From a virus (lineage: Duplodnaviria > Heunggongvirae > Uroviricota > Caudoviricetes): DNA of 31,903 bases. A program made the position numbers and the translations under genes. Where the stretch lies: IMG/VR virus record IMGVR_UViG_648276649_000004. The stretch is one strand, 5' to 3'. Below the pieces are notes generated by a model. It saw only the letters and a program-made list of their open reading frames with translations. It was not told the origin of the DNA and made no database searches. This document shows, in pieces, positions 2,522-27,503 of the stretch. Every line of letters starts with the position of its first letter. Position 1 is the first letter of the stretch.

Positions 2522-2708
2522 GAACACCTCCATTATTATTTCCAGTGGTTCGTTTATTCCATCTTTCGAGTGCTTCTTTTTCACTTCCACCATAACCGGT
2601 TCGGGATTCGCATCCGTTACACTTCGCTCGGTAATATCCTGAAATGGCTTTCACCGTTACTGATGGACAACCACAAAATGGACATGGTTTAACATTGTCA
2701 TATCTCAT
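2514..2708 (-). CDS. ralR: Restriction alleviation protein Lar/RalR, 64 aa
   Basis: Translation MRYDNVKPCPFCGCPSVTVKAISGYYRAKCNGCESRTGYGG... has the CPFCG...CNGC zinc-ribbon of Lar-family proteins; start taken at M14 of the track ORF. It overlaps the ydaC start by 8 nt. Confidence 0.75.
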   Translation of the reverse strand: MRYDNVKPCPFCGCPSVTVKAISGYYRAKCNGCESRTGYGGSEKEALERWNKRTTGNNNGGVHV

Positions 2709-2764
2709 AATTTTTCTCATAAAAAATATTTCAAGTTGGCGGTGCATTACACCGCCAGGCTGAA

Positions 2765-3574
2765 TTATTCCTCTGAATTATCGATTACACTGTATTCCCC
2801 GGTTAATACAGAGGAATCTGCAGGATCGATTGTCAGTGGTTCCTTTTCATCCATTGATACTGCACGCTGGATCTCAATTGATACGGGCAGATATTTGAAC
2901 AGGCGACGAATAGCCGTTTTCTTTGCCATTTCTTCCCAGTGAGTTACCCACGGCCCGTTATTACCAGCTTTACTCAGGCTGCGCACCAGCTCAATCTGTT
3001 TGCGCGTCATAACTTCAAACTGAGTACCTCCGTCTTTCAGTCTTGCGACAGCATAGACGTGGGTAACCGGGGCATCTTCGTTTTCTCCCGGGCGGTGTAT
3101 TAACTTTTCATCAAGGCCAAATTCGAAGCTAAACTCGTCACCTTCACGGACAACACGGGCTGACAGGCTGGCGATTTGACCAGAACGGCGAGCCAGATCA
3201 ATCATGCCGCGATAGCCAATGATTAGCTGAACGTTCTTTTTACCGCTCTTTTCGTTTTTATTACCAAAAGGCAGTAAATATGCATGACCGAGGGCGCTAC
3301 CTGGCTCAAGTCCGAGCTGTGAACACTGTACGATCGCACTGACAAAACTCATAGTGTCACAGTTTCCTAACGCCGGAACTTTACGAATTTCTGTGGTGGC
3401 GATACGGATCATACGTTCAGCCGTCATATGGCGTGGAAGAGCTGCTGCCAGTTGCTCTTTCATTGATGGCTGGTTAATAAAACTAATCACGTCGCTATTT
3501 TTAACTGCTGCTGGTGCACGGTTTCCCTGAGTTTTTTGCAGATCGGCTTTTGCGATTGGTGGTTGCTTAGTCAT
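2765..3574 (-). CDS. recT: Recombinase RecT (single-strand annealing protein), 269 aa
   Basis: Translation from [24 protein letters not shown]... matches my recollection of Rac RecT. Start taken at M20 of the track ORF, with an AAGGA ribosome-binding site upstream; it overlaps the recE stop. Confidence 0.9.
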
Positions 3575-6167
3575 TTGCATATTCCTTAGCCCAGCGGGGC
3601 AGTGATAATGTCTTAATAGCTGGCCATTCATCGGTATTCAGGCAGTCAGACAGGGTTCGCAGATTGCGGTGATATTCCTGTTGACCTGCCAGTTTTGCTT
3701 CTTCGCCCATCATGAAAATTTCAACCGGATAACGTCCGCATTCAATAGTTGTGCTGGCAACCAGAAAAACGAAAGTTGGCTGCACTCCAAACTGTGCTTC
3801 ATAACCGTCACTGTAGAACGCATCCTGAACGTGATAGCGGTAGTCGTAATAAGCGGTTTTGAATCGTTGAATATCCGCCGTAGTTTTCACGTCCATGATC
3901 CAGTGAAATTCAGGGATAATTTTGTCCGGACGGCACCGACACAAAATTCCTGTTTCAGGATCTTCCCAGTAAATTGATGATTCAGCGTGTCCGGCGCTTT
4001 CAACAAGCCATTGCCCCAGCGGCAAAGCCATAACGCTTTGATACATGAGTTCAATTTTCCGGCCTTCTTCCGCAGTGATAACCGTTTTTCCTGTGCTTGC
4101 GCATTCCATCAGAAACGCTTTCTCTTCTTCTTTTCCGGCGTTTGTACGGCGGTTAAATTCAGGTGCTACGATAAAGCGGTTACTGAATTCTTCCGGTTCA
4201 AGTACCCGGCAGTGGAAAGCAGTTCCTAAATCGAGCGTTTTTGTCTTTGTGGTGTCCACGGGGGCATTTTTACGCCACAAATATAGTGCCGGAGTATCAG
4301 CAATGTCATCGAGCTGAGACTTACTGATACCGGGACCCGCGTGGTAATTCTCATTCGAAATTCCGTAATAAATACCTGGCTCTATGTCTTCTACGATTAC
4401 GGGATCTGCGACTTCGCCAGTTTCATCACTGCAATCGCGATGCGGATCGCTGCCAGCATTCTCATTGTGCGGATGTTCAGCGCCTTCCATTTCCTCCGGA
4501 TCATTTTCCTTAGCTTCAACCTGACTCTCTTCATCGAATGTTTCCTGGTATGTTGCGTCGCCCATCACCGCACCACAGTCAGGGCAGTTATCCCCGCCAG
4601 TCTGGCCGCAGGCATTGCAGGCTATTTCCGGTTCCTGTTGCACTACTGGCTCAGGTTGATTCATATCTGGGCTGGTTTTTTCCGTTTCTGGCTGGTTCTG
4701 GTACACACAATCGCGAGTCTGGATCCCCTTTACCCATTTCGGATCGTTCGGGTCGCTAATTCCGTCAACAAATTCACCACGTGATGCAGCAAGCAATTTA
4801 TCGGCATCGACAGGATTTTTTGATGGAATGTTTTTCCGGGCTTCATGGAGTTCTGCCCGCAGTTCCTGATATTTCGCATCAACAGAATTTACCTGTGACT
4901 GAGCATCCAGCGGCTGCGTGTCCTGATGATGTTCAGTTGCGTCCGGTTCCATTGTTTCAGCCTCTCCCTGTTCAACTGCCGTTGTTCCAGATGGTTGCGG
5001 TTTTTCTTCATCATCCTGTTTTCCTTCTTCTGTTACTCGCTGCGGCATCGGGGCAGAGGAGCGACCGCAGGCAATATCCACGATTTCCGGATCAGGGTTG
5101 GCATGATCGGTTTCAGTCAGTACTTTGTTCAGATATTCAGTGACGTGCGCGGGGATGACCTCGATCCCAATTGGTGCTTCTTTTACGGACGCAACCACGA
5201 TGGCGCGGGAATAATCCAGCCCGCCAGGCATGGTGATGAATTTGTTGCGGAAAACAGAAAAGGGCGGTTTATTTTCAGCGATAATTTCCTCAATGCGTTT
5301 AGCGTGTGCCGGATGAAGGTTATAGATGTCCAGATCCATTGAACGGGCCAGTACGCCAGTGGCTACGTCGCGCGCCAGTGACGTCAGATCGTGTACGAAA
5401 CCTTCGCCGCGATCGGTGAGGTTTCCGCCGCCAGCATTAGCACCGGAAGCCGTGCAAGTGATGTGTGAAACACGATTACCCTTCATCCACTCTTTTGTCA
5501 GCAGTCCTCGATCGGTGTAGTCAGCGTTCAGGTATGCTTCGAAAAAAGCAGTTATCAGTCCCAGGTTTGAATTACCAGGATTAGGGAAAACTTTGTCAGT
5601 GTCACGAACCAGTTTGTGGAGTTCGCGAATTTCCAGCGGGTCGAGCAGGCTGGTTTTGTGGGAAACAGCCAGGGCAGTAACAGCCGGTAGTTCTTCAGCC
5701 CGAGCAATGTGTAATGCCTGGAGTCCGTCGCGTGAAACGTGCGTTACCGGTTTTTCGCTGCCGTGTTGAGCAAGCCAACGAATGGGCAGTTCCTGGCCAG
5801 AAATTGGGAGTAGCATATTCTCCTCAATCTCAGTCATGTCTTCGCCGTTGACGTTGGTATTGCCTTGATAGTGAGCGTTGTCTGGTGCTGCTCCCGGTTT
5901 TAGTTCCCATGTCATGGAGTCTTTGCTGAGTTGATAGCGTTCACTCCAGGTAAAATCGATCTCACCTTCAGCGGGCAGGTCATTAACGACAGGAAAATTC
6001 GTGGCAACAGCTTTAAAATAGCTGCTCAGTTTTTTACCTGACTTAACGATCAGGTAGTCCAGAGTGGCACAGGTCGATTCAAAATCGTTGCTTGCCCACA
6101 GGACGACGTCAGGTTCACCGGATGATTTTTTCGCTTTCCGTAACAGGAAGAGTGGTTTTGTGCTCAT
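3567..6167 (-). CDS. recE: Exodeoxyribonuclease VIII RecE, 866 aa
   Basis: 866-aa ORF immediately upstream of and overlapping recT, with a long acidic linker and a C-terminal nuclease domain; same size and position as Rac RecE. Confidence 0.9.
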
Positions 6168-6268: not shown

Positions 6269-6544
6269 TCAGATTTCACCTTTTAATTTCATTGCAATTA
6301 GAGTTGCCAGAAATTCGGCTTTTTTTTCTGCGGGCAGATTCTTTCCGATATGCACCAGGCACATTTTTTTGACACCTTCATCAAGTGTTTTTACGTTGCC
6401 TGATGGACCATCGATATCAACCACAGTGAATGGGGTTTCTTTATTTTCTGTTTTAATTACGTAGCCAATGCGCTTTCCTTCCAGATTCACCTCGTGAACA
6501 ATGTCATCGGTAGTTACAACAGTGGCTTCATAATTGGTAATCAT
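6269..6544 (-). CDS. racC: Rac prophage protein RacC, 91 aa
   Basis: ORF MITNYEATVVTTDDIVHEV... with an AAGGAG ribosome-binding site 6 nt upstream of the ATG; start taken at M17 of the track ORF. Confidence 0.7.
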   Translation of the reverse strand: MITNYEATVVTTDDIVHEVNLEGKRIGYVIKTENKETPFTVVDIDGPSGNVKTLDEGVKKMCLVHIGKNLPAEKKAEFLATLIAMKLKGEI

Positions 6545-6618
6545 GTTTTTCTCCTTAATTAAGGTTGAGCGAATACCTGCCATTTCTGGCATAAATTCAG
6601 TTTCGAATAGTCAATTAA

Positions 6619-20371: not shown

Positions 20372-20661
20372 TGGTGAATTTACGTAAAGCGGCTAAAGGC
20401 CAGATGTGCCAGATCAGAATCCCTGGCTACTGCAATCACAATCCCGAAACCTCTGTGCTGGCGCATTACAGGCTGGCGGGGACGTGCGGAACAGCGACAA
20501 AACCACACGATATGCAGGCGGCGATAGCCTGTAGCTCATGCCACGATCTAATCGACGGGCGGGTAAAAACCAGCGATTACACCAAAGAAGAATTGCGCCT
20601 GATGCATGCTGAAGGGGTTTTTCGCACACAAGAAATCTGGAGAAAGAAAGGTCATTTATGA
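20371..20661 (+). CDS. YbcO-like (DUF1364) putative nuclease of lambdoid prophages, 96 aa
   Basis: 96-aa Cys/His-rich protein (...CQIRIPGYCNHNPETSVLAHYR...CSSCHDLIDGR...) of the size and pattern recalled for DLP12 YbcO; translationally coupled to both neighbours. Confidence 0.65.
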   Translation: MVNLRKAAKGQMCQIRIPGYCNHNPETSVLAHYRLAGTCGTATKPHDMQAAIACSSCHDLIDGRVKTSDYTKEELRLMHAEGVFRTQEIWRKKGHL

Positions 20662-21200
20662 TTTACCCAACGAATACAGGAAAAAGCGGAGAACACCTTC
20701 GCCTCACCACGCTGGAAAGTGTCTGGATTCAGGGAAAACTACGTATGTGGGGGCGCTGGTCGTATATTGGCGGTGGCAGGTCAGGGAATATGTTCAATCA
20801 GTTGTTGGCATCCAAAAAACTGACGAAAACAGCCATTAATGAAGCCCTGCGTAGAATGAAAAAAGCGGGAATAGAGAAAGCTGAGCTGGAAGCGTTTTTG
20901 CGAGAGATGATCAACGGCAAGCAAAAGAGCTGGCTGGCGCATTGTACTGATGCAGAGGCGTTATGTATTGATCGAGTCATAAGTGAGGTGCTGGCAGAGC
21001 ATCCAGGATTGATTTGCATTCTCCGGCAACGCTATGAAGGGCGGGGGATGACTAAGCGCAAAATGGCTGAATTGCTAAATGATGGACACCCAGAGTGGTG
21101 TTTTAGCACATGCGAAAAACGGATTGCTAATTGGTTAGCTGTTGCTGAGTATGCCCTATATATTCCCATGCGTGAATCATTTGCTGAGAAAATGGCTTGA
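20658..21200 (+). CDS. Putative late-gene antitermination protein Q-like, 180 aa
   Basis: Last gene of the nin-type operon, immediately upstream of an intrinsic terminator and the lysis cassette, which is the Q position; Cys/His-containing C-terminus. Called by position, not by verified homology. Confidence 0.5.
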   Translation: MIYPTNTGKSGEHLRLTTLESVWIQGKLRMWGRWSYIGGGRSGNMFNQLLASKKLTKTAINEALRRMKKAGIEKAELEAFLREMINGKQKSWLAHCTDAEALCIDRVISEVLAEHPGLICILRQRYEGRGMTKRKMAELLNDGHPEWCFSTCEKRIANWLAVAEYALYIPMRESFAEKMA

Positions 21201-21308: not shown

Positions 21309-21627
21309 CGTCAGGAAAGCAGGGGAGAATGCTGCTAGTTGGGCAACTGGTCTTTCTGCTCCAAATTATAACAGAGACCAGTTATAGTTTCGGTGCTGTG
21401 TTTTTTTTACAATATTGTGATAACACATTGCTGGCGGGAGTTTTGATATTTCTTGGCAGGGGCTGATGATGCGTTATCCTGATGTCGTCAACTCATATAA
21501 AATGAGATGAGAGATCATTGCAGGGTGGTTTGTAATTCGCTGTTTAGCGGGACAATATGTTGTCTGATACAAGACACCCGACGCCTCAGATTACTATAAT
21601 AAAGACGAAGCATCCTTTGTATTGACC

Positions 21628-21656
21628 AACCGCCTGTTTAGGCGGTTCTTTTTGGA
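21628..21656 (+). terminator. Second intrinsic-terminator-like hairpin in the Q to lysis leader
   Basis: aaccgcc-tgttta-ggcggtt followed by cttttt. Confidence 0.5.
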
Positions 21657-22242
21657 CTGGTTTATTGTATGCCAAATGATTATTAAAAAGGTTGTGTTAA
21701 TAACAAAATCCGAAATAATATGCCTGCATATTTTTATCTTGCTTATATTCTGCATATTGTGCATAGCAGGCTCATCCCTGCAATCAAAACTGTATGATGA
21801 GTATTTTTTTTTCCTTTTTTCCAGTCATCTGATGATGACCTGCTTCTTTTTAATCCGGATCGACATCAGTTTTTTAAGATAATTCCTGCGAGTTATATGC
21901 ATAAATACCACAAACTCCGCATTTTATGTGGTTGGGAGTTGCCGGGCGCGCAGTGAGTTTGCTAAGAAAACTCCTGCATGGTGAATCCCCCTGTGCGGTG
22001 GGGTGATACCATTAACCTTTTCTGTCGCCGACAGGTATCACGAACATTTTGTTCACCGGGAGGCACCCGGCACCATGCACTTCAATAGATTCTCTCCACA
22101 TTATGGATATTCTTTCAGAATATCCCACGCAGACTTTGTGTAAATGTTAACAAATGTGCGTTTTATTTGATCTGATTCGCTGTTTGAGCGTCCAAAACAA
22201 CGGTATATATAATCCTTTACTATATGACATATGTGAGGAAAA

Positions 22243-22671
22243 ATGGGTTTTCGTAGCGCATCAATTCTTACGTTGATTATTAGTGGGATTATTATCGGGT
22301 GCACTGATGCTGTATCGACAAATTATCATGACCGTACATCATATTACTCCGATAAAGCAATAGAGACACAGTATGTGAGTTCATCTGAACGTACTTCTGA
22401 TGTTAGTGAGGATATCCGTCTGTATGCCCATCAAATCAAGAGCGCCATCGAAAAACAGTTCGGGGATGCGAGTAAGTATTCAGGAAAAGAGTGTACACTG
22501 AGAATGCATATGGCCCCGAATGGCCTTCTACTGGAGGTTAAAAGAGAAAGTGGAGACCTCGATTTATGTCGTGAAGCGATGAATGCGATAAAGAATGCTG
22601 ATATACCTGCCCCCCCTTCGCCGGAAGTATATAAAGTATTTCAAAATGGGGTGCTGGATTTTAAACCCTGA
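22243..22671 (+). CDS. Lipoprotein with a TolA C-terminal-domain (TolA-III)-like region, 142 aa
   Basis: GAGGA ribosome-binding site; signal peptide with lipobox ...IIGC; C-terminal region HQIKSAIEKQFGDASKYSGKECTLRMHMAPNGLLLEVKRESGDLDLCREAMNAIKNADIPAPPSPEVYKVFQNGVLDFKP closely resembles the C-terminal domain of E. coli TolA as I recall it. Confidence 0.7.
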   Translation: MGFRSASILTLIISGIIIGCTDAVSTNYHDRTSYYSDKAIETQYVSSSERTSDVSEDIRLYAHQIKSAIEKQFGDASKYSGKECTLRMHMAPNGLLLEVKRESGDLDLCREAMNAIKNADIPAPPSPEVYKVFQNGVLDFKP

Positions 22672-22821
22672 TATTTATTGTTTTGTAATAAACGGTTTCG
22701 GCTTAGGTTTGTTCTGACACAGCTACGGCACTGAGCTAAATTTAGCGGATAGTCAGCTCTGAGCCAGTGGCGGACGTAACAACTACTATTGCTGAGATTT
22801 TAATGGATTGAGGAGCAAGAA

Positions 22822-23217
22822 GTGGGATTAAAGAAAATCGTTATGTTGACTTTTTGGGTCGGTTTTGTTGCGGGATGCACACCTTTACACCCTTCAGATT
22901 GCCACAAAACTACTGCTACAGGTAGTTGCAGTTCAGGACGCTGGGATGATCAGGATGAATGGGGGGCGCAAGCGCGGGGAATCAGAGCTGCAATTAATGC
23001 CAAACTTGATGAGCCGCATAACTGGAAAGGGAAAAAATGCAGGTTGCATATGGAATTCTCTCAGGATGGCACGGCGTTAAAAATATCTACCAGTAACGGT
23101 GATAAAGCCTATTGCGAAGCGATAAAGTCCGCAGCTCATAAAGCCAAATTTCCGGCCTTCAACAATCCGGAAGTCTACAGAGATTTTCAGAAATCTGGCT
23201 TTGACATGCGAGGTTAG
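22822..23217 (+). CDS. Second, diverged TolA-III-like lipoprotein, 131 aa (GTG start)
   Basis: GAGGAG ribosome-binding site 6 nt before the GTG; lipobox ...VAGC; C-terminal region ...INAKLDEPHNWKGKKCRLHMEFSQDGTALKISTSNGDKAYCEAIKSAAHKAKFPAFNNPEVYRDFQ... follows the same motif order as the upstream paralog. Confidence 0.6.
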   Translation: MGLKKIVMLTFWVGFVAGCTPLHPSDCHKTTATGSCSSGRWDDQDEWGAQARGIRAAINAKLDEPHNWKGKKCRLHMEFSQDGTALKISTSNGDKAYCEAIKSAAHKAKFPAFNNPEVYRDFQKSGFDMRG

Positions 23218-23468
23218 CTCTTCAATTACTATATCTCATTCATAGCAAACTGACAGATTTGATGATGTTCTATATACGAAACCTGTGATGTCAAGTCTGA
23301 GCTAATACAAATAAACATAATATCAGAGAAATACATTTTATTAGCTCGCTACGGCGAGCTTTTTATATTGCATCGTCTCCAGCATATATATCAATTAAGG
23401 CTCTGATTGATGTGTCTGAAAGCCTACACATAATAACTATGCCATCCGTTCCGTGCGGAGGTGAGGCT

Positions 23469-23684
23469 ATGAAATCCATGGACAAAATTTCAACAGACAT
23501 TGCCTACGGCACCTCCGCAGGCAGTGCTGGCTACTGGTTTTTACAGTTGCTCGATAGAGTAACTCCGTCACAGTGGGCTGCAATCGGTGTGCTGGGTAGT
23601 CTGGTATTTGGCCTGCTGACGTACCTGACAAACCTTTATTTCAAGATTAAAGAAGATAAGCGCAAGGCTGCGAGAGGTGAATAA
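23469..23684 (+). CDS. Phage-21-type holin (pinholin S21-like), 71 aa with a dual-start motif
   Basis: Translation [71 protein letters not shown] with two transmembrane segments; MKSM dual start; GGAGGTGAGG ribosome-binding site upstream. Confidence 0.85.
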
Positions 23685-26192: not shown

Positions 26193-27503
26193 ATGGGTTT
26201 TTCATCAGCCCGAAATTTGGGAAGGGACATATCGGCAGGATTTTCCCCACCACGTCGCATGCCGATTTCGGAGGCTGTTAAAAAATTCATGCGTGTTCCC
26301 AAGGGGGCTGGTAACTCGGTGCCATGGGATCCTGAACTGACACCCTACATCATTGAGCCCATGAACTGCCTGGCATCGCGTGAATACGATGCGGTGATTT
26401 TTGTTGGTCCTGCGCGAACAGGGAAGACCATTGGTCTGATCGATGGATGGATTGTCTATACCATCGTTTGCGATCCTTCGGACATGCTCGTTGTGCAGAT
26501 GACCGAAGATAAGGCCCGCGAGCATTCTAAAAAGCGCCTCGACAGAACGTTCAGAAGCAGTGCGGCGGTAAAGAAAAGAATGAGTCCACGTCGTAACGAC
26601 AATAATGTCCATGATAAGACGTTCAGGGATGGCTCGTTCCTTAAAATTGGTTGGCCCTCGGTCAACATTATGTCGTCGTCGGATTACCGGTTTGTCGCCT
26701 TAACCGATTACGACCGTTTTCCGGAGAATATCGACAGCGAGGGTGATGGTTTCTCCCTGGCCTCAAAACGTACCACCACATTTATGTCCGCCGGGATGAC
26801 TCTGGTGGAGAGCTCGCCGGGACGTGACATCTGCGACAGCAAATGGCGACGTAAGTCGCCTCATGAAGCGCCACCGACGACTGGTATTCTTTCCCTTTAC
26901 AATCGTGGTGACCGCCGCCGCTGGTACTGGCCATGTCCGCACTGCGGTGAATATTTTCAGCCAGCTATGGATGCCATGACCGGCTACCGTAATGAACCGG
27001 ATCCCTTTAAAGCCAGTGAGGCGGCGTATCTACTTTGCCCACACTGCAGCGGCATTATCACTGCGGAGAAAAAGCGTGAGCTCAATAGTGCAGGAGTCTG
27101 GTTGCGTGAAGGTCAGGTCATTGATCGTAACGGCAACGTTTCCGGTGAACCGCGCCGCTCCCGTATCGCCAGTTTCTGGATGGAAGGGCCAGCTGCTGCG
27201 TATCAGGCCTGGGCGCAACTGGTTTACAAATTACTGACTGCAGAACAGGAGTATGAAGCGACAGGAAGAGAAGAAACACTCAGGGCGGTTATCAACACCG
27301 ACTGGGGATTACCTTATCTTCCCCGCGCCAGCATGGAGCAACGAAAAAGTGAACTGCTTGAGCAGCGGGCAGAGCCAGTTCCTTCCCGCAGTGTGCCAGA
27401 TGGCGTTAATTTCCTTGTGGCGACAGTGGATGTGCAGGCGGGACGTCATCGCCGTTTTGTGGTTCAGGTACCGGAGTCGGAAGTTGCCGGACCCTGCAGA
27501 TGA
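26193..27503 (+). pseudogene. Terminase large subunit (lambda gpA-like), C-terminally truncated at about 430 aa
   Basis: AGGAGG ribosome-binding site. The N-terminal ATPase region is present (Walker A-like VGPARTGKT), but the frame ends after ...[18 protein letters not shown], where a full-length lambda-type large subunit would continue for roughly 200 more residues. Confidence 0.75.

Follow-up and report, generated by a model that had tools for sequence, protein, structure and literature searches.

Two Adjacent Prophage Lipoproteins with a TolA Domain III as Candidate Decoys in the Outer Membrane for the g3p of Filamentous Phages and for Tol-Dependent Colicins

What would a lambdoid prophage, or the cell that carries it, gain from two lipoproteins that each end in a copy of TolA's C-terminal domain? 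This question is raised by two adjacent open reading frames (ORFs), here called ORF1 and ORF2, in the IMG/VR record IMGVR_UViG_648276649_000004 (Caudoviricetes), the whole 31,903-nucleotide (nt) stretch of which was analyzed and is referred to as the window. An earlier reading of this DNA, made from its letters without database searches (the original prediction), had proposed that such membrane-tethered copies of TolA domain III (TolA-III) act as a decoy for superinfection exclusion or colicin immunity, or as a modulator of Tol-Pal that assists lysis or vesicle release. In this study, we examine the domain and the lipoprotein signals of both products, their ligand surfaces, the spread of their genes and the selection acting on them, and the cassette and prophage in which they lie. 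The reading that we favor, with a rough probability of 0.45, is that ORF1 and ORF2 are outer-membrane decoys for the g3p of filamentous phages and for Tol-dependent colicins.

Two lipoprotein precursors that end in TolA domain III

The original prediction had matched a C-terminal region of roughly 90 amino acids (aa) in both products to TolA-III and had described the second copy as the more diverged. Profile, sequence and structure comparisons all agree on the identity of the domain, and residue counts bear out the divergence. Against the Pfam family TolA_C (PF06519; curated cut-off, 25 bits), residues 49-140 of ORF1 scored 82.6 bits (E=2.4e-23) and residues 44-125 of ORF2 scored 54.6 bits (E=1.3e-14), and phmmer searches of TolA-III chains in the Protein Data Bank (PDB) returned E=5e-28 and E=5e-9, respectively. 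ORF1 is identical to residues 334-421 of Escherichia coli TolA at 52 of 88 positions (59%) and ORF2 at 27 of 88 (31%), while the two proteins are 29% identical to each other. The cysteines of the TolA disulfide, C363 and C388, are invariant in the alignment and correspond to C84/C109 in ORF1 and C73/C98 in ORF2. Models of both proteins were built with AlphaFold2 (AF2) from family alignments, and gave predicted local distance difference test (pLDDT) values above 90 over the domain and below 50 over the signal peptide and linker. The ORF1 model superimposed on 2x9a_B, from the IF1 g3p-TolA complex, with a root-mean-square deviation (rmsd) of 0.6 Å over 88 residues and a Foldseek TM-score of 0.96. 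For the ORF2 model on 3qdp, the values were 1.1 Å over 83 residues and 0.89, both TM-scores being normalized to the target; the two references are TolA-III from its g3p and colicin A complexes. Both proteins carry a complete TolA C-terminal domain, and the match is far above chance.

Judged by the rest of its make-up, neither protein is a bona fide TolA. The TolA equivalog NF007065 of NCBIfam gave 107.8 bits for ORF1 and 53.7 bits for ORF2 against a cut-off of 213, with matches to positions 293-386/387 only. ORF1 exceeded the TIGR02794 cut-off (75.6 against 59.45 bits) but spans just positions 265-362/362 of that model, and ORF2, at 47.2 bits, fell below it. All other Pfam and NCBIfam matches were to C-terminal domains of the TolA/TonB type, save a sub-threshold match of ORF2 to But2 (E=0.15). 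Both proteins lack the transmembrane domain I and the long helical domain II of TolA, and have a lipoprotein signal and a linker of 25-33 residues instead; without domains I and II there would be no coupling to the TolQR motor, and the domain therefore could not be energized. Compared with E. coli TolA domain III (about residues 334-421; PDB 1TOL, 2X9A, 3QDP/3QDR and 1S62), the fold, the disulfide and the free C-terminal beta3 strand are common to both ORFs, whereas the predicted tether is to the opposite membrane and the link to TolQR and the proton-motive force is gone.

The N-terminal ends explain how such a domain could be held in the periplasm. As originally predicted, the two genes are adjacent, with the ORF boundaries now confirmed (Table 1), and each has its own ribosome-binding site: a Shine-Dalgarno GAGGA (22235-22239) lies 5' of the ATG of ORF1 at 22243, and GAGGAG (22810-22815), followed by a 6-nt spacer, precedes the GTG of ORF2 at 22822. 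Because an in-frame TAA (22801-22803) lies 5' of this start, ORF2 lacks the longer N-terminus that is annotated for some homologues. Both precursors begin with a short positively charged stretch, a hydrophobic core and a lipobox, which was scored as a signal peptide ending in [LVI][ASTVI][GAS]C. ORF1 reads MGFRSASILTLIISGIIIG up to the lipid-bearing C20 (lipobox I-I-G-C) and ORF2 reads MGLKKIVMLTFWVGFVAG up to C19 (V-A-G-C), the two lipoboxes that had been named at the outset, and the lipobox is preserved among the relatives of each. In E. coli, the residue at position +2 sets the destination of a lipoprotein (the Lol sorting rule). The residue that follows the lipid-bearing cysteine is T, A or S across both families and never D, and outer-membrane sorting is therefore predicted. 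ORF1 and ORF2 are thus probably lipoproteins of the outer membrane.

That these proteins contain a TolA domain is in itself annotation-level knowledge, since RefSeq already labels it as 'TolA C-terminal domain-containing protein'; PHROG 5772 is listed as 'unknown function'. In many genomes RefSeq/PGAP goes on to annotate ORF1 as a tolA pseudogene 'missing N-terminus' (for example at 6312-6572 of locus L001, equivalent to window positions 22411-22671). This label is an artifact, because ORF1, an intact lipoprotein ORF, was compared with full-length TolA. Recent capture from E. coli tolA was also considered and rejected: protein identity is only 59%, and ORF1 DNA, searched by blastn in 'distant' mode, matched only the 898 genomes that carry the cassette and not the host tolA of about 4,500 genomes without it. 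The absence of that match in cassette-free genomes implies that ORF1 is not a recent tolA fragment.

The surfaces through which TolA-III meets its ligands have been mapped. The beta3 site (A415-K420) and helix 334-349 serve g3p-N1, colicin N and the TolB N-terminus; either of the substitutions D418P and K420P eliminates binding and produces a tol phenotype, and Y340A and I344D confer partial and complete colicin resistance, respectively (PMC4339652). Colicin A uses the beta2 site (L375-P380) along with K368, K379 and K396 (PMC3365938), and in 1TOL the helix 334-349 contacts g3p-N1. The beta3 edge strand (415-420) is APLDFK in TolA, GVLDFK in ORF1 and SGFDMR in ORF2. Neither ORF has a proline where D418P and K420P abolish binding, and both terminate right behind the strand, as TolA does. 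ORF1 retains the TolA residue at 6 of 9 positions in the beta3 region (412-420), at 4 of 8 in the colicin A site, and at 11 of 16 in helix 334-349 (including Y340 and I344), these 16 being positions picked from the g3p contact region. The corresponding counts for ORF2 are 2/9, 2/8 and 4/16. On these counts, ORF1 looks like a close mimic of the enterobacterial TolA co-receptor.

ORF2 has a further feature next to its anchor. Its residues 19-44 (C-TPLHPSD-C-HKTTATGS-C-SSGRWDDQDEW), which AF2 left unmodeled, have a conservation of 0.96 as compared to 0.93 in the domain, and the C-x8-C loop within them is retained in clusters that are less than 50% identical but is absent from TolA. The diverged ligand surfaces and this conserved Cys-loop together make a different or additional partner probable, and ORF2 is therefore probably a specialized, diverged paralogue.

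Distribution and selection

Among 5,426 complete E. coli genomes, ORF1-type DNA was found in 898 (16.5%), almost exclusively on the chromosome, and the whole pair was present at 99% identity or more in 773; about one quarter of the genomes have cassette-matching DNA on a chromosome or a plasmid. The ORF1 protein family is small and, where the source names the organism, comes from Escherichia and Shigella only. A variant that is 66% identical to ORF1 occurs without ORF2, in the layout Q, tRNAs, gene, nanS-p esterase, DUF1378, DUF826, holin. In the prophages with this variant (loci L113-L116, about 2636-4539), further accessory genes, one of the TfpB family and one for an AraC-type regulator, occupy this slot in the interval from Q to the tRNA genes.

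The ORF2 family reaches further. Copies with 87-88% DNA identity were found on about 600 plasmids, where they lie directly 3' of the nikA-nikB relaxase genes (in the IncK2/Z plasmids sampled) or adjoin toxB (in pO157-like IncF plasmids). The identification of the IncI-complex gene after nikB as 'yggA' was rejected: yggA is found across oriT from there, and the IncI1 plasmid pESBL has no gene between nikB and trbC. Single ORF2-type genes, outside prophage lysis regions, are also found on the chromosomes of about 20 other enterobacterial species, in genera that include Enterobacter, Citrobacter, Klebsiella, Raoultella, Serratia, Pantoea and Kluyvera. The synteny of these chromosomal homologues is patchy (a LysR regulator, a SulP transporter, a BtuE-like peroxidase) and gives no functional clue. 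A third family of TolA-III lipoproteins occupies about 300 plasmids of Klebsiella and Enterobacter, among them the K. pneumoniae plasmid pMR0617ctx (locus L119, 4217-5246), with IncF and IncR among those sampled. Its product of 144 aa has the lipobox ITAC, and in both plasmids examined a gene for a periplasmic thioredoxin-fold (Dsb-like) protein lies immediately 5' of it.

The original prediction had spoken of tandem lipoproteins. An adjacent pair is what the window holds, but the tandem is not obligate, since each gene type occurs alone elsewhere: the ORF1 variant without ORF2, and ORF2-type genes without ORF1 on plasmids and chromosomes. An obligate two-gene system was accordingly rejected, and ORF1 and ORF2 are independent modules. 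The architecture itself is common. A profile search of 1.84 billion cluster representatives returned 565 matches, and among the best 149 of these, 78 are short (100-170 aa), at least 58 of them with a lipobox; a lipoprotein signal joined to TolA-III therefore defines a large class.

Selection was examined through the ratio of nonsynonymous to synonymous substitution rates (dN/dS). For ORF2 the ratio was 0.06-0.16 against plasmid and chromosomal copies, and ORF2-type genes are under strong purifying selection (dN/dS of about 0.1). For ORF1, compared with its 66% variant, the ratio was 0.25 in the domain and 0.49 in the signal and linker.

The cassette and its host prophage

The features of the locus are collected in Table 1. 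The original placement of the pair between the Q/tR' region and the holin gene is upheld by the Q-like gene, the tR'-like hairpin and the P21-type holin gene. Its further claim, that this is the slot of Shiga toxin, finds its counterpart in the 66%-identical ORF1 variant, which occupies the place of stx in an Stx-phage-like layout. The promoter-like and terminator-like sites between 21571 and 21647 are, we infer, a pR'/tR' arrangement.

Table 1. Positions of the genes, protein segments and candidate signals in the window
Feature	Position	Strand	Details
Q-like late antiterminator gene	20658..21200	+	180 aa; Pfam DUF1133 E=7e-107; Phage_antitermQ 26.4 bits (cut-off 26)
Candidate late promoter, pR'-like	21571-21600	+	AAGACA-18-TATAAT; consensus scan
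tR'-like terminator hairpin and T tail	21628-21647	+	consensus scan
STnc100 prophage small RNA (sRNA)	21946..22132	+	directly 5' of ORF1; Rfam RF02076, 86.6 bits (gathering score 47)
Sigma-70 promoter-like site	22184..22213	+	TTGAGC-18-TATAAT, 10/12 consensus; 30 nt 5' of ORF1 start; consensus scan
ORF1, lipoprotein precursor	22243..22671	+	142 aa; ATG start
ORF1 signal peptide and lipobox	22243-22302	+	aa 1-20; Cys20
ORF1 linker	22303-22401	+	aa 21-53; poorly conserved
ORF1 TolA-III domain	22402-22668	+	aa 54-142
ORF2, lipoprotein precursor	22822..23217	+	131 aa; GTG start
ORF2 signal peptide and lipobox	22822-22878	+	aa 1-19; Cys19
ORF2 anchor-proximal segment	22876-22953	+	aa 19-44; highly conserved; C27-x8-C36 loop
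ORF2 TolA-III domain	22954-23214	+	aa 45-131
Intrinsic-terminator-like hairpin	23343..23368	+	AGCTCGC-TACG-GCGAGCT, then TTTTTATATT; closes the cassette 5' of the holin gene
P21-type holin (S21/EssD-like)	23469..23684	+	first lysis gene; Pfam Phage_holin_2_1 E=4.6e-34
Tail-fiber C-terminus	27500-28306		Collar and fiber repeat
Tail-fiber assembly gene	28306-28887		

The boundaries of the cassette were examined by comparing the window with 84 loci, namely 80 prophage loci of IMG/VR and the loci L001-L004; the IMG/VR copies are all 99% identical and so inform on boundaries, not on diversity. The left edge of homology fell at 21914-22052 in 35 of the 84 loci and further left in the rest, which places the left edge of the cassette within or beside STnc100. 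On the right, homology commonly stopped where the holin gene or Rz ends. Phage mEp460_ev081 has the same cassette behind a different Q and ahead of a different lysis module, and the junction with phages of this type lies near 22051, inside STnc100. The promoter-like site 5' of ORF1 falls within the conserved cassette, and the terminator-like hairpin at its other end is absent from the plasmid copies, whose homology stops at 23219-23220. The GC content is 0.39-0.46 in the cassette as compared to 0.47-0.55 in the flanks. With its own candidate promoter and terminator, its low GC content and its different Q and lysis linkages, the cassette appears to behave as a moron. It resembles the lambda-type morons (bor, lom, stx) as a low-GC insert with a candidate promoter and terminator between Q and the lysis genes, and differs from them in its products.

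A role for STnc100 as a dedicated 5' leader of ORF1 is not supported: what lies upstream of the ORF1 variant is tRNA genes and unrelated sequence. In a 2026 preprint, STnc100 is related to the PasD sRNAs. On the other side of the cassette, RefSeq essD in locus L001 maps onto the holin gene of the window, behind which lie genes for a phage lysozyme, Rz/Rz1 and Bor, the Bor homologue being 1 kb downstream of the cassette.

The surrounding element is a Rac-like lambdoid prophage of E. coli, with the gene order integrase, RalR/RalA, RecE-like exonuclease and replication genes, hokD, a DUF1367 gene, a YbcO-family gene and the Q-like gene. In the interval 26193-28887, its large-terminase ORF (436 aa, comprising the gpA ATPase and the start of the nuclease domain) runs directly into the C-terminus of a tail fiber, which is followed by the tail-fiber assembly gene. 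The prophage is therefore defective, with its head and tail morphogenesis genes deleted.

Three other parts of the element were recorded. The type I toxin-antitoxin system RalR/RalA of Rac adjoins the integrase gene, at 2312-2593 on the minus strand and 2337-2515 on the plus strand (Rfam RalA, 225 bits). Between the replication genes and hokD lies a 6-kb non-phage cargo (11640-17896) that encodes two transporters, one of the BCCT betaine/carnitine/choline type (667 aa) and one of the MFS type, as well as a DUF2254 membrane protein, a LysR regulator and a ChaC-like gamma-glutamylcyclotransferase; PADLOC, searched with the BCCT and DUF2254 proteins, gave no match. The Rfam model of the sRNA IS009 matches within the tail-fiber assembly gene (28649-28847, plus strand, 229 bits) and also in mEp460_ev081.

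Candidate roles of the tethered domain

As outer-membrane decoys, and if expressed in the lysogen, the two lipoproteins would each dangle a complete but unpowered TolA domain III into the periplasm. The N1 domain of g3p, the translocation domains of Tol-dependent colicins, or colicin-loaded TolB would be captured just inside the outer membrane, before the invader meets the few energized TolA molecules. A bound ligand would go nowhere, as the decoy has neither domains I and II nor coupling to TolQR, and tolerance of the carrier cell to these phages and bacteriocins would follow. ORF1 would mimic the enterobacterial TolA, and ORF2 would serve another or an additional specificity.

There is indirect support for such decoys. 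TolA-III exported to the periplasm reportedly makes E. coli tolerant to group A colicins (attributed to Levengood-Freyermuth and colleagues in 1993), and soluble TolA-III is said to block Ff infection (Riechmann and Holliger, in 1997). The near-identical backbone of the modeled domains, together with the retained beta3 strand and, in ORF1, helix 334-349, suggests that ligands could still be bound, and the predicted outer-membrane site is where TolB-Pal sits and where ligands first emerge. The carriers also fit a protective accessory gene, the cassette having been kept despite the loss of the head and tail genes from the prophage, and purifying selection acts on both genes. TolA-dependent filamentous phages use conjugative pili as their primary receptors, and the presence of relatives on conjugative plasmids fits protection against those that are pilus specific. 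Finally, TolA-III binds colicin N at about 1 µM and g3p-N1 at about 1-15 µM, as compared to about 40 µM for TolB (PMC4339652); with affinities higher for invaders than for TolB, a decoy could therefore protect at a modest cost to Tol-Pal.

Several points weigh against ORF1 and ORF2 being decoys. The side chains of ORF2 are mostly replaced on the surfaces mapped for g3p, colicin N and colicin A, and its conserved Cys-loop segment hints at a partner unrelated to the TolA ligands. ORF2 is very conserved, whereas a decoy in an arms race might be expected to diversify, and the ordinary chromosomal sites of ORF2-type genes in many genera would fit a housekeeping envelope role as well. A lambdoid prophage has no direct gain from excluding filamentous phages, any benefit going to its host, and a tethered TolA-III could titrate TolB, at a cost. 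The promoter and terminator of the cassette are candidates found as consensus matches, tblastn found the genes in only 1 of 50,697 sequenced phage genomes, and PADLOC returned no match for ORF1 or ORF2 at E values up to 1.

A broader form of the decoy proposal can be put forward only tentatively. In it, prophages, conjugative plasmids of the I-complex and F type and many enterobacterial chromosomes would share a widespread, hitherto unrecognized class of envelope immunity proteins, a lipid-anchored and unpowered TolA-III 'flypaper' for Tol-dependent bacteriocins and for filamentous phages that are pilus specific, of which the ORF1 type, the ORF2 type and the Klebsiella plasmid type are tuned to different invaders.

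The alternative of Tol-Pal modulation, the other half of the original prediction, is in our judgment unlikely. The tethered domain would here bind the TolB N-terminus at the outer membrane, compete with energized TolA and loosen Pal-mediated attachment, and the outcome would be vesicle release, easier disruption of the outer membrane at lysis, or an envelope remodeling that aids the element through release of late products or easier conjugation. Such a role suits genes in the late region, 3' of Q and immediately 5' of the holin gene in the stx slot, but plasmids and chromosomal sites outside prophages, where there are no lysis genes, also carry conserved ORF2-type genes, and the cassette is kept in a prophage unable to make virions; assistance to lysis in particular is weakened by these copies and by the loss of the head and tail genes. 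TolB does use the beta3 site that both ORFs keep (PMC4339652; PMC7391070), and yet the TolA-TolB affinity is weak. Blocking the contact between TolA and TolB makes cells leaky and sensitive to sodium dodecyl sulfate (PMC4339652), and modulated TolB interactions could, according to a review, regulate vesicle production (PMC7391070); a constitutive tol-like defect, however, should be counter-selected, whereas selection on the genes is purifying.

It is about equally improbable that the TolA-III fold has been re-used, such that at least ORF2 is an envelope lipoprotein with a main ligand outside the known TolA ligands and with its Cys-loop as part of the binding site. This ligand could be a different protein of the outer membrane or periplasm, or else belong to another class of incoming toxin or phage protein. 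The anchor-proximal segment of ORF2 is as conserved as its domain, its loop persists below 50% identity, and the mapped TolA surfaces are mostly replaced; beta3 strand addition rests mainly on the backbone (PMC4339652), however, so that side-chain divergence is compatible with the known ligands, and ORF2 retains the fold, the disulfide cysteines and the free C-terminal strand. Residence at ordinary chromosomal sites in some 20 species and the size and diversity of the class would suit a re-used fold, but no candidate partner was found, the neighbors of the chromosomal ORF2 homologues not being conserved.

That the genes are instead inert passengers, relics of an old capture of the tolA 3' end in a decaying prophage, is very improbable: the prophage is indeed defective, ORF1 does appear in RefSeq as a tolA pseudogene, and vertical descent could account for the near-identical copies in many genomes, but both ORFs are intact, with ribosome-binding sites and with signal peptides and lipoboxes that TolA lacks, diverged copies give dN/dS values of 0.06-0.25, the Q and lysis modules that accompany the cassette differ, the genes occur on plasmids too, and ORF1 DNA has no blastn match to host tolA in the cassette-free genomes.

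Outer-membrane decoys of the kind favored here would have both natural and engineered counterparts. In the engineered periplasmic TolA-III fragments mentioned above, the isolated domain competes with native TolA, which is the mechanism proposed here; those fragments are reportedly soluble, over-produced and a cause of leakiness, whereas the present domain is natural, is predicted to be lipid anchored and comes in two diverged versions. The g3p made in an infected cell reportedly occupies TolA and thereby causes colicin tolerance and superinfection resistance (work ascribed to Boeke, Model and Zinder, 1982). The same g3p-TolA interface is involved and Tol import is shut in that case too, as a mirror image: there the receptor is saturated by its ligand, and here the ligand would be absorbed by an excess of receptor domain. 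Llp of T5, Cor of phi80, N15 and HK022, and TraT of the F plasmid are likewise small outer-membrane lipoproteins, encoded by accessory genes of mobile elements, that protect the carrier at the entry step. ORF1 and ORF2 have no sequence or fold relationship to them, the Pfam and PHROG matches pointing to TolA instead, and where Llp and Cor block the outer-membrane receptor FhuA, ORF1 and ORF2 would imitate a periplasmic co-receptor. The FimU-like minor pilins of Pseudomonas phages are also prophage-borne, diverged copies of a host envelope component that other phages need; in that case, the route is the type IV pilus, the protein is a different one and the function is demonstrated (PMC12952977).

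The original prediction had named no characterized system of this kind, and neither the full-text literature nor PADLOC supplied a function. The literature search found no work on TolA-III proteins encoded by phages or plasmids, and a review of Tol-Pal makes no mention of such proteins (PMC7391070); O157 expression and proteome papers and Liberibacter papers were set aside, as their matches concern host tolA or a colicin domain. In the searchable literature, neither the class nor its likely role nor the way it has spread over mobile elements appears to have been described, and ORF1 and ORF2 belong to no described defense or exclusion family (PADLOC; Llp, Cor, TraT).

For annotation, the consequence is that ORF1 should be read as an intact ORF rather than as a tolA pseudogene. 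A natural, tethered TolA-III is also a ready-made probe of the TolA-TolB interaction. If ORF1 and ORF2 are decoys, they would represent a new logic of defense at the level of entry, in which a periplasmic co-receptor is imitated rather than a surface receptor masked. They would help to explain natural variation in the sensitivity of E. coli to colicins and filamentous phages, about one in six genomes carrying ORF1, and would illustrate a way for conjugative plasmids to counterbalance the exposure to phages that comes with their own pili. Such decoys would further bear on Tol-Pal biology, on the hosts used for phage display, and on the use of pilus-specific phages and colicins against resistance plasmids and pathogens, with homologues carried by pO157 and by IncF plasmids of Klebsiella.

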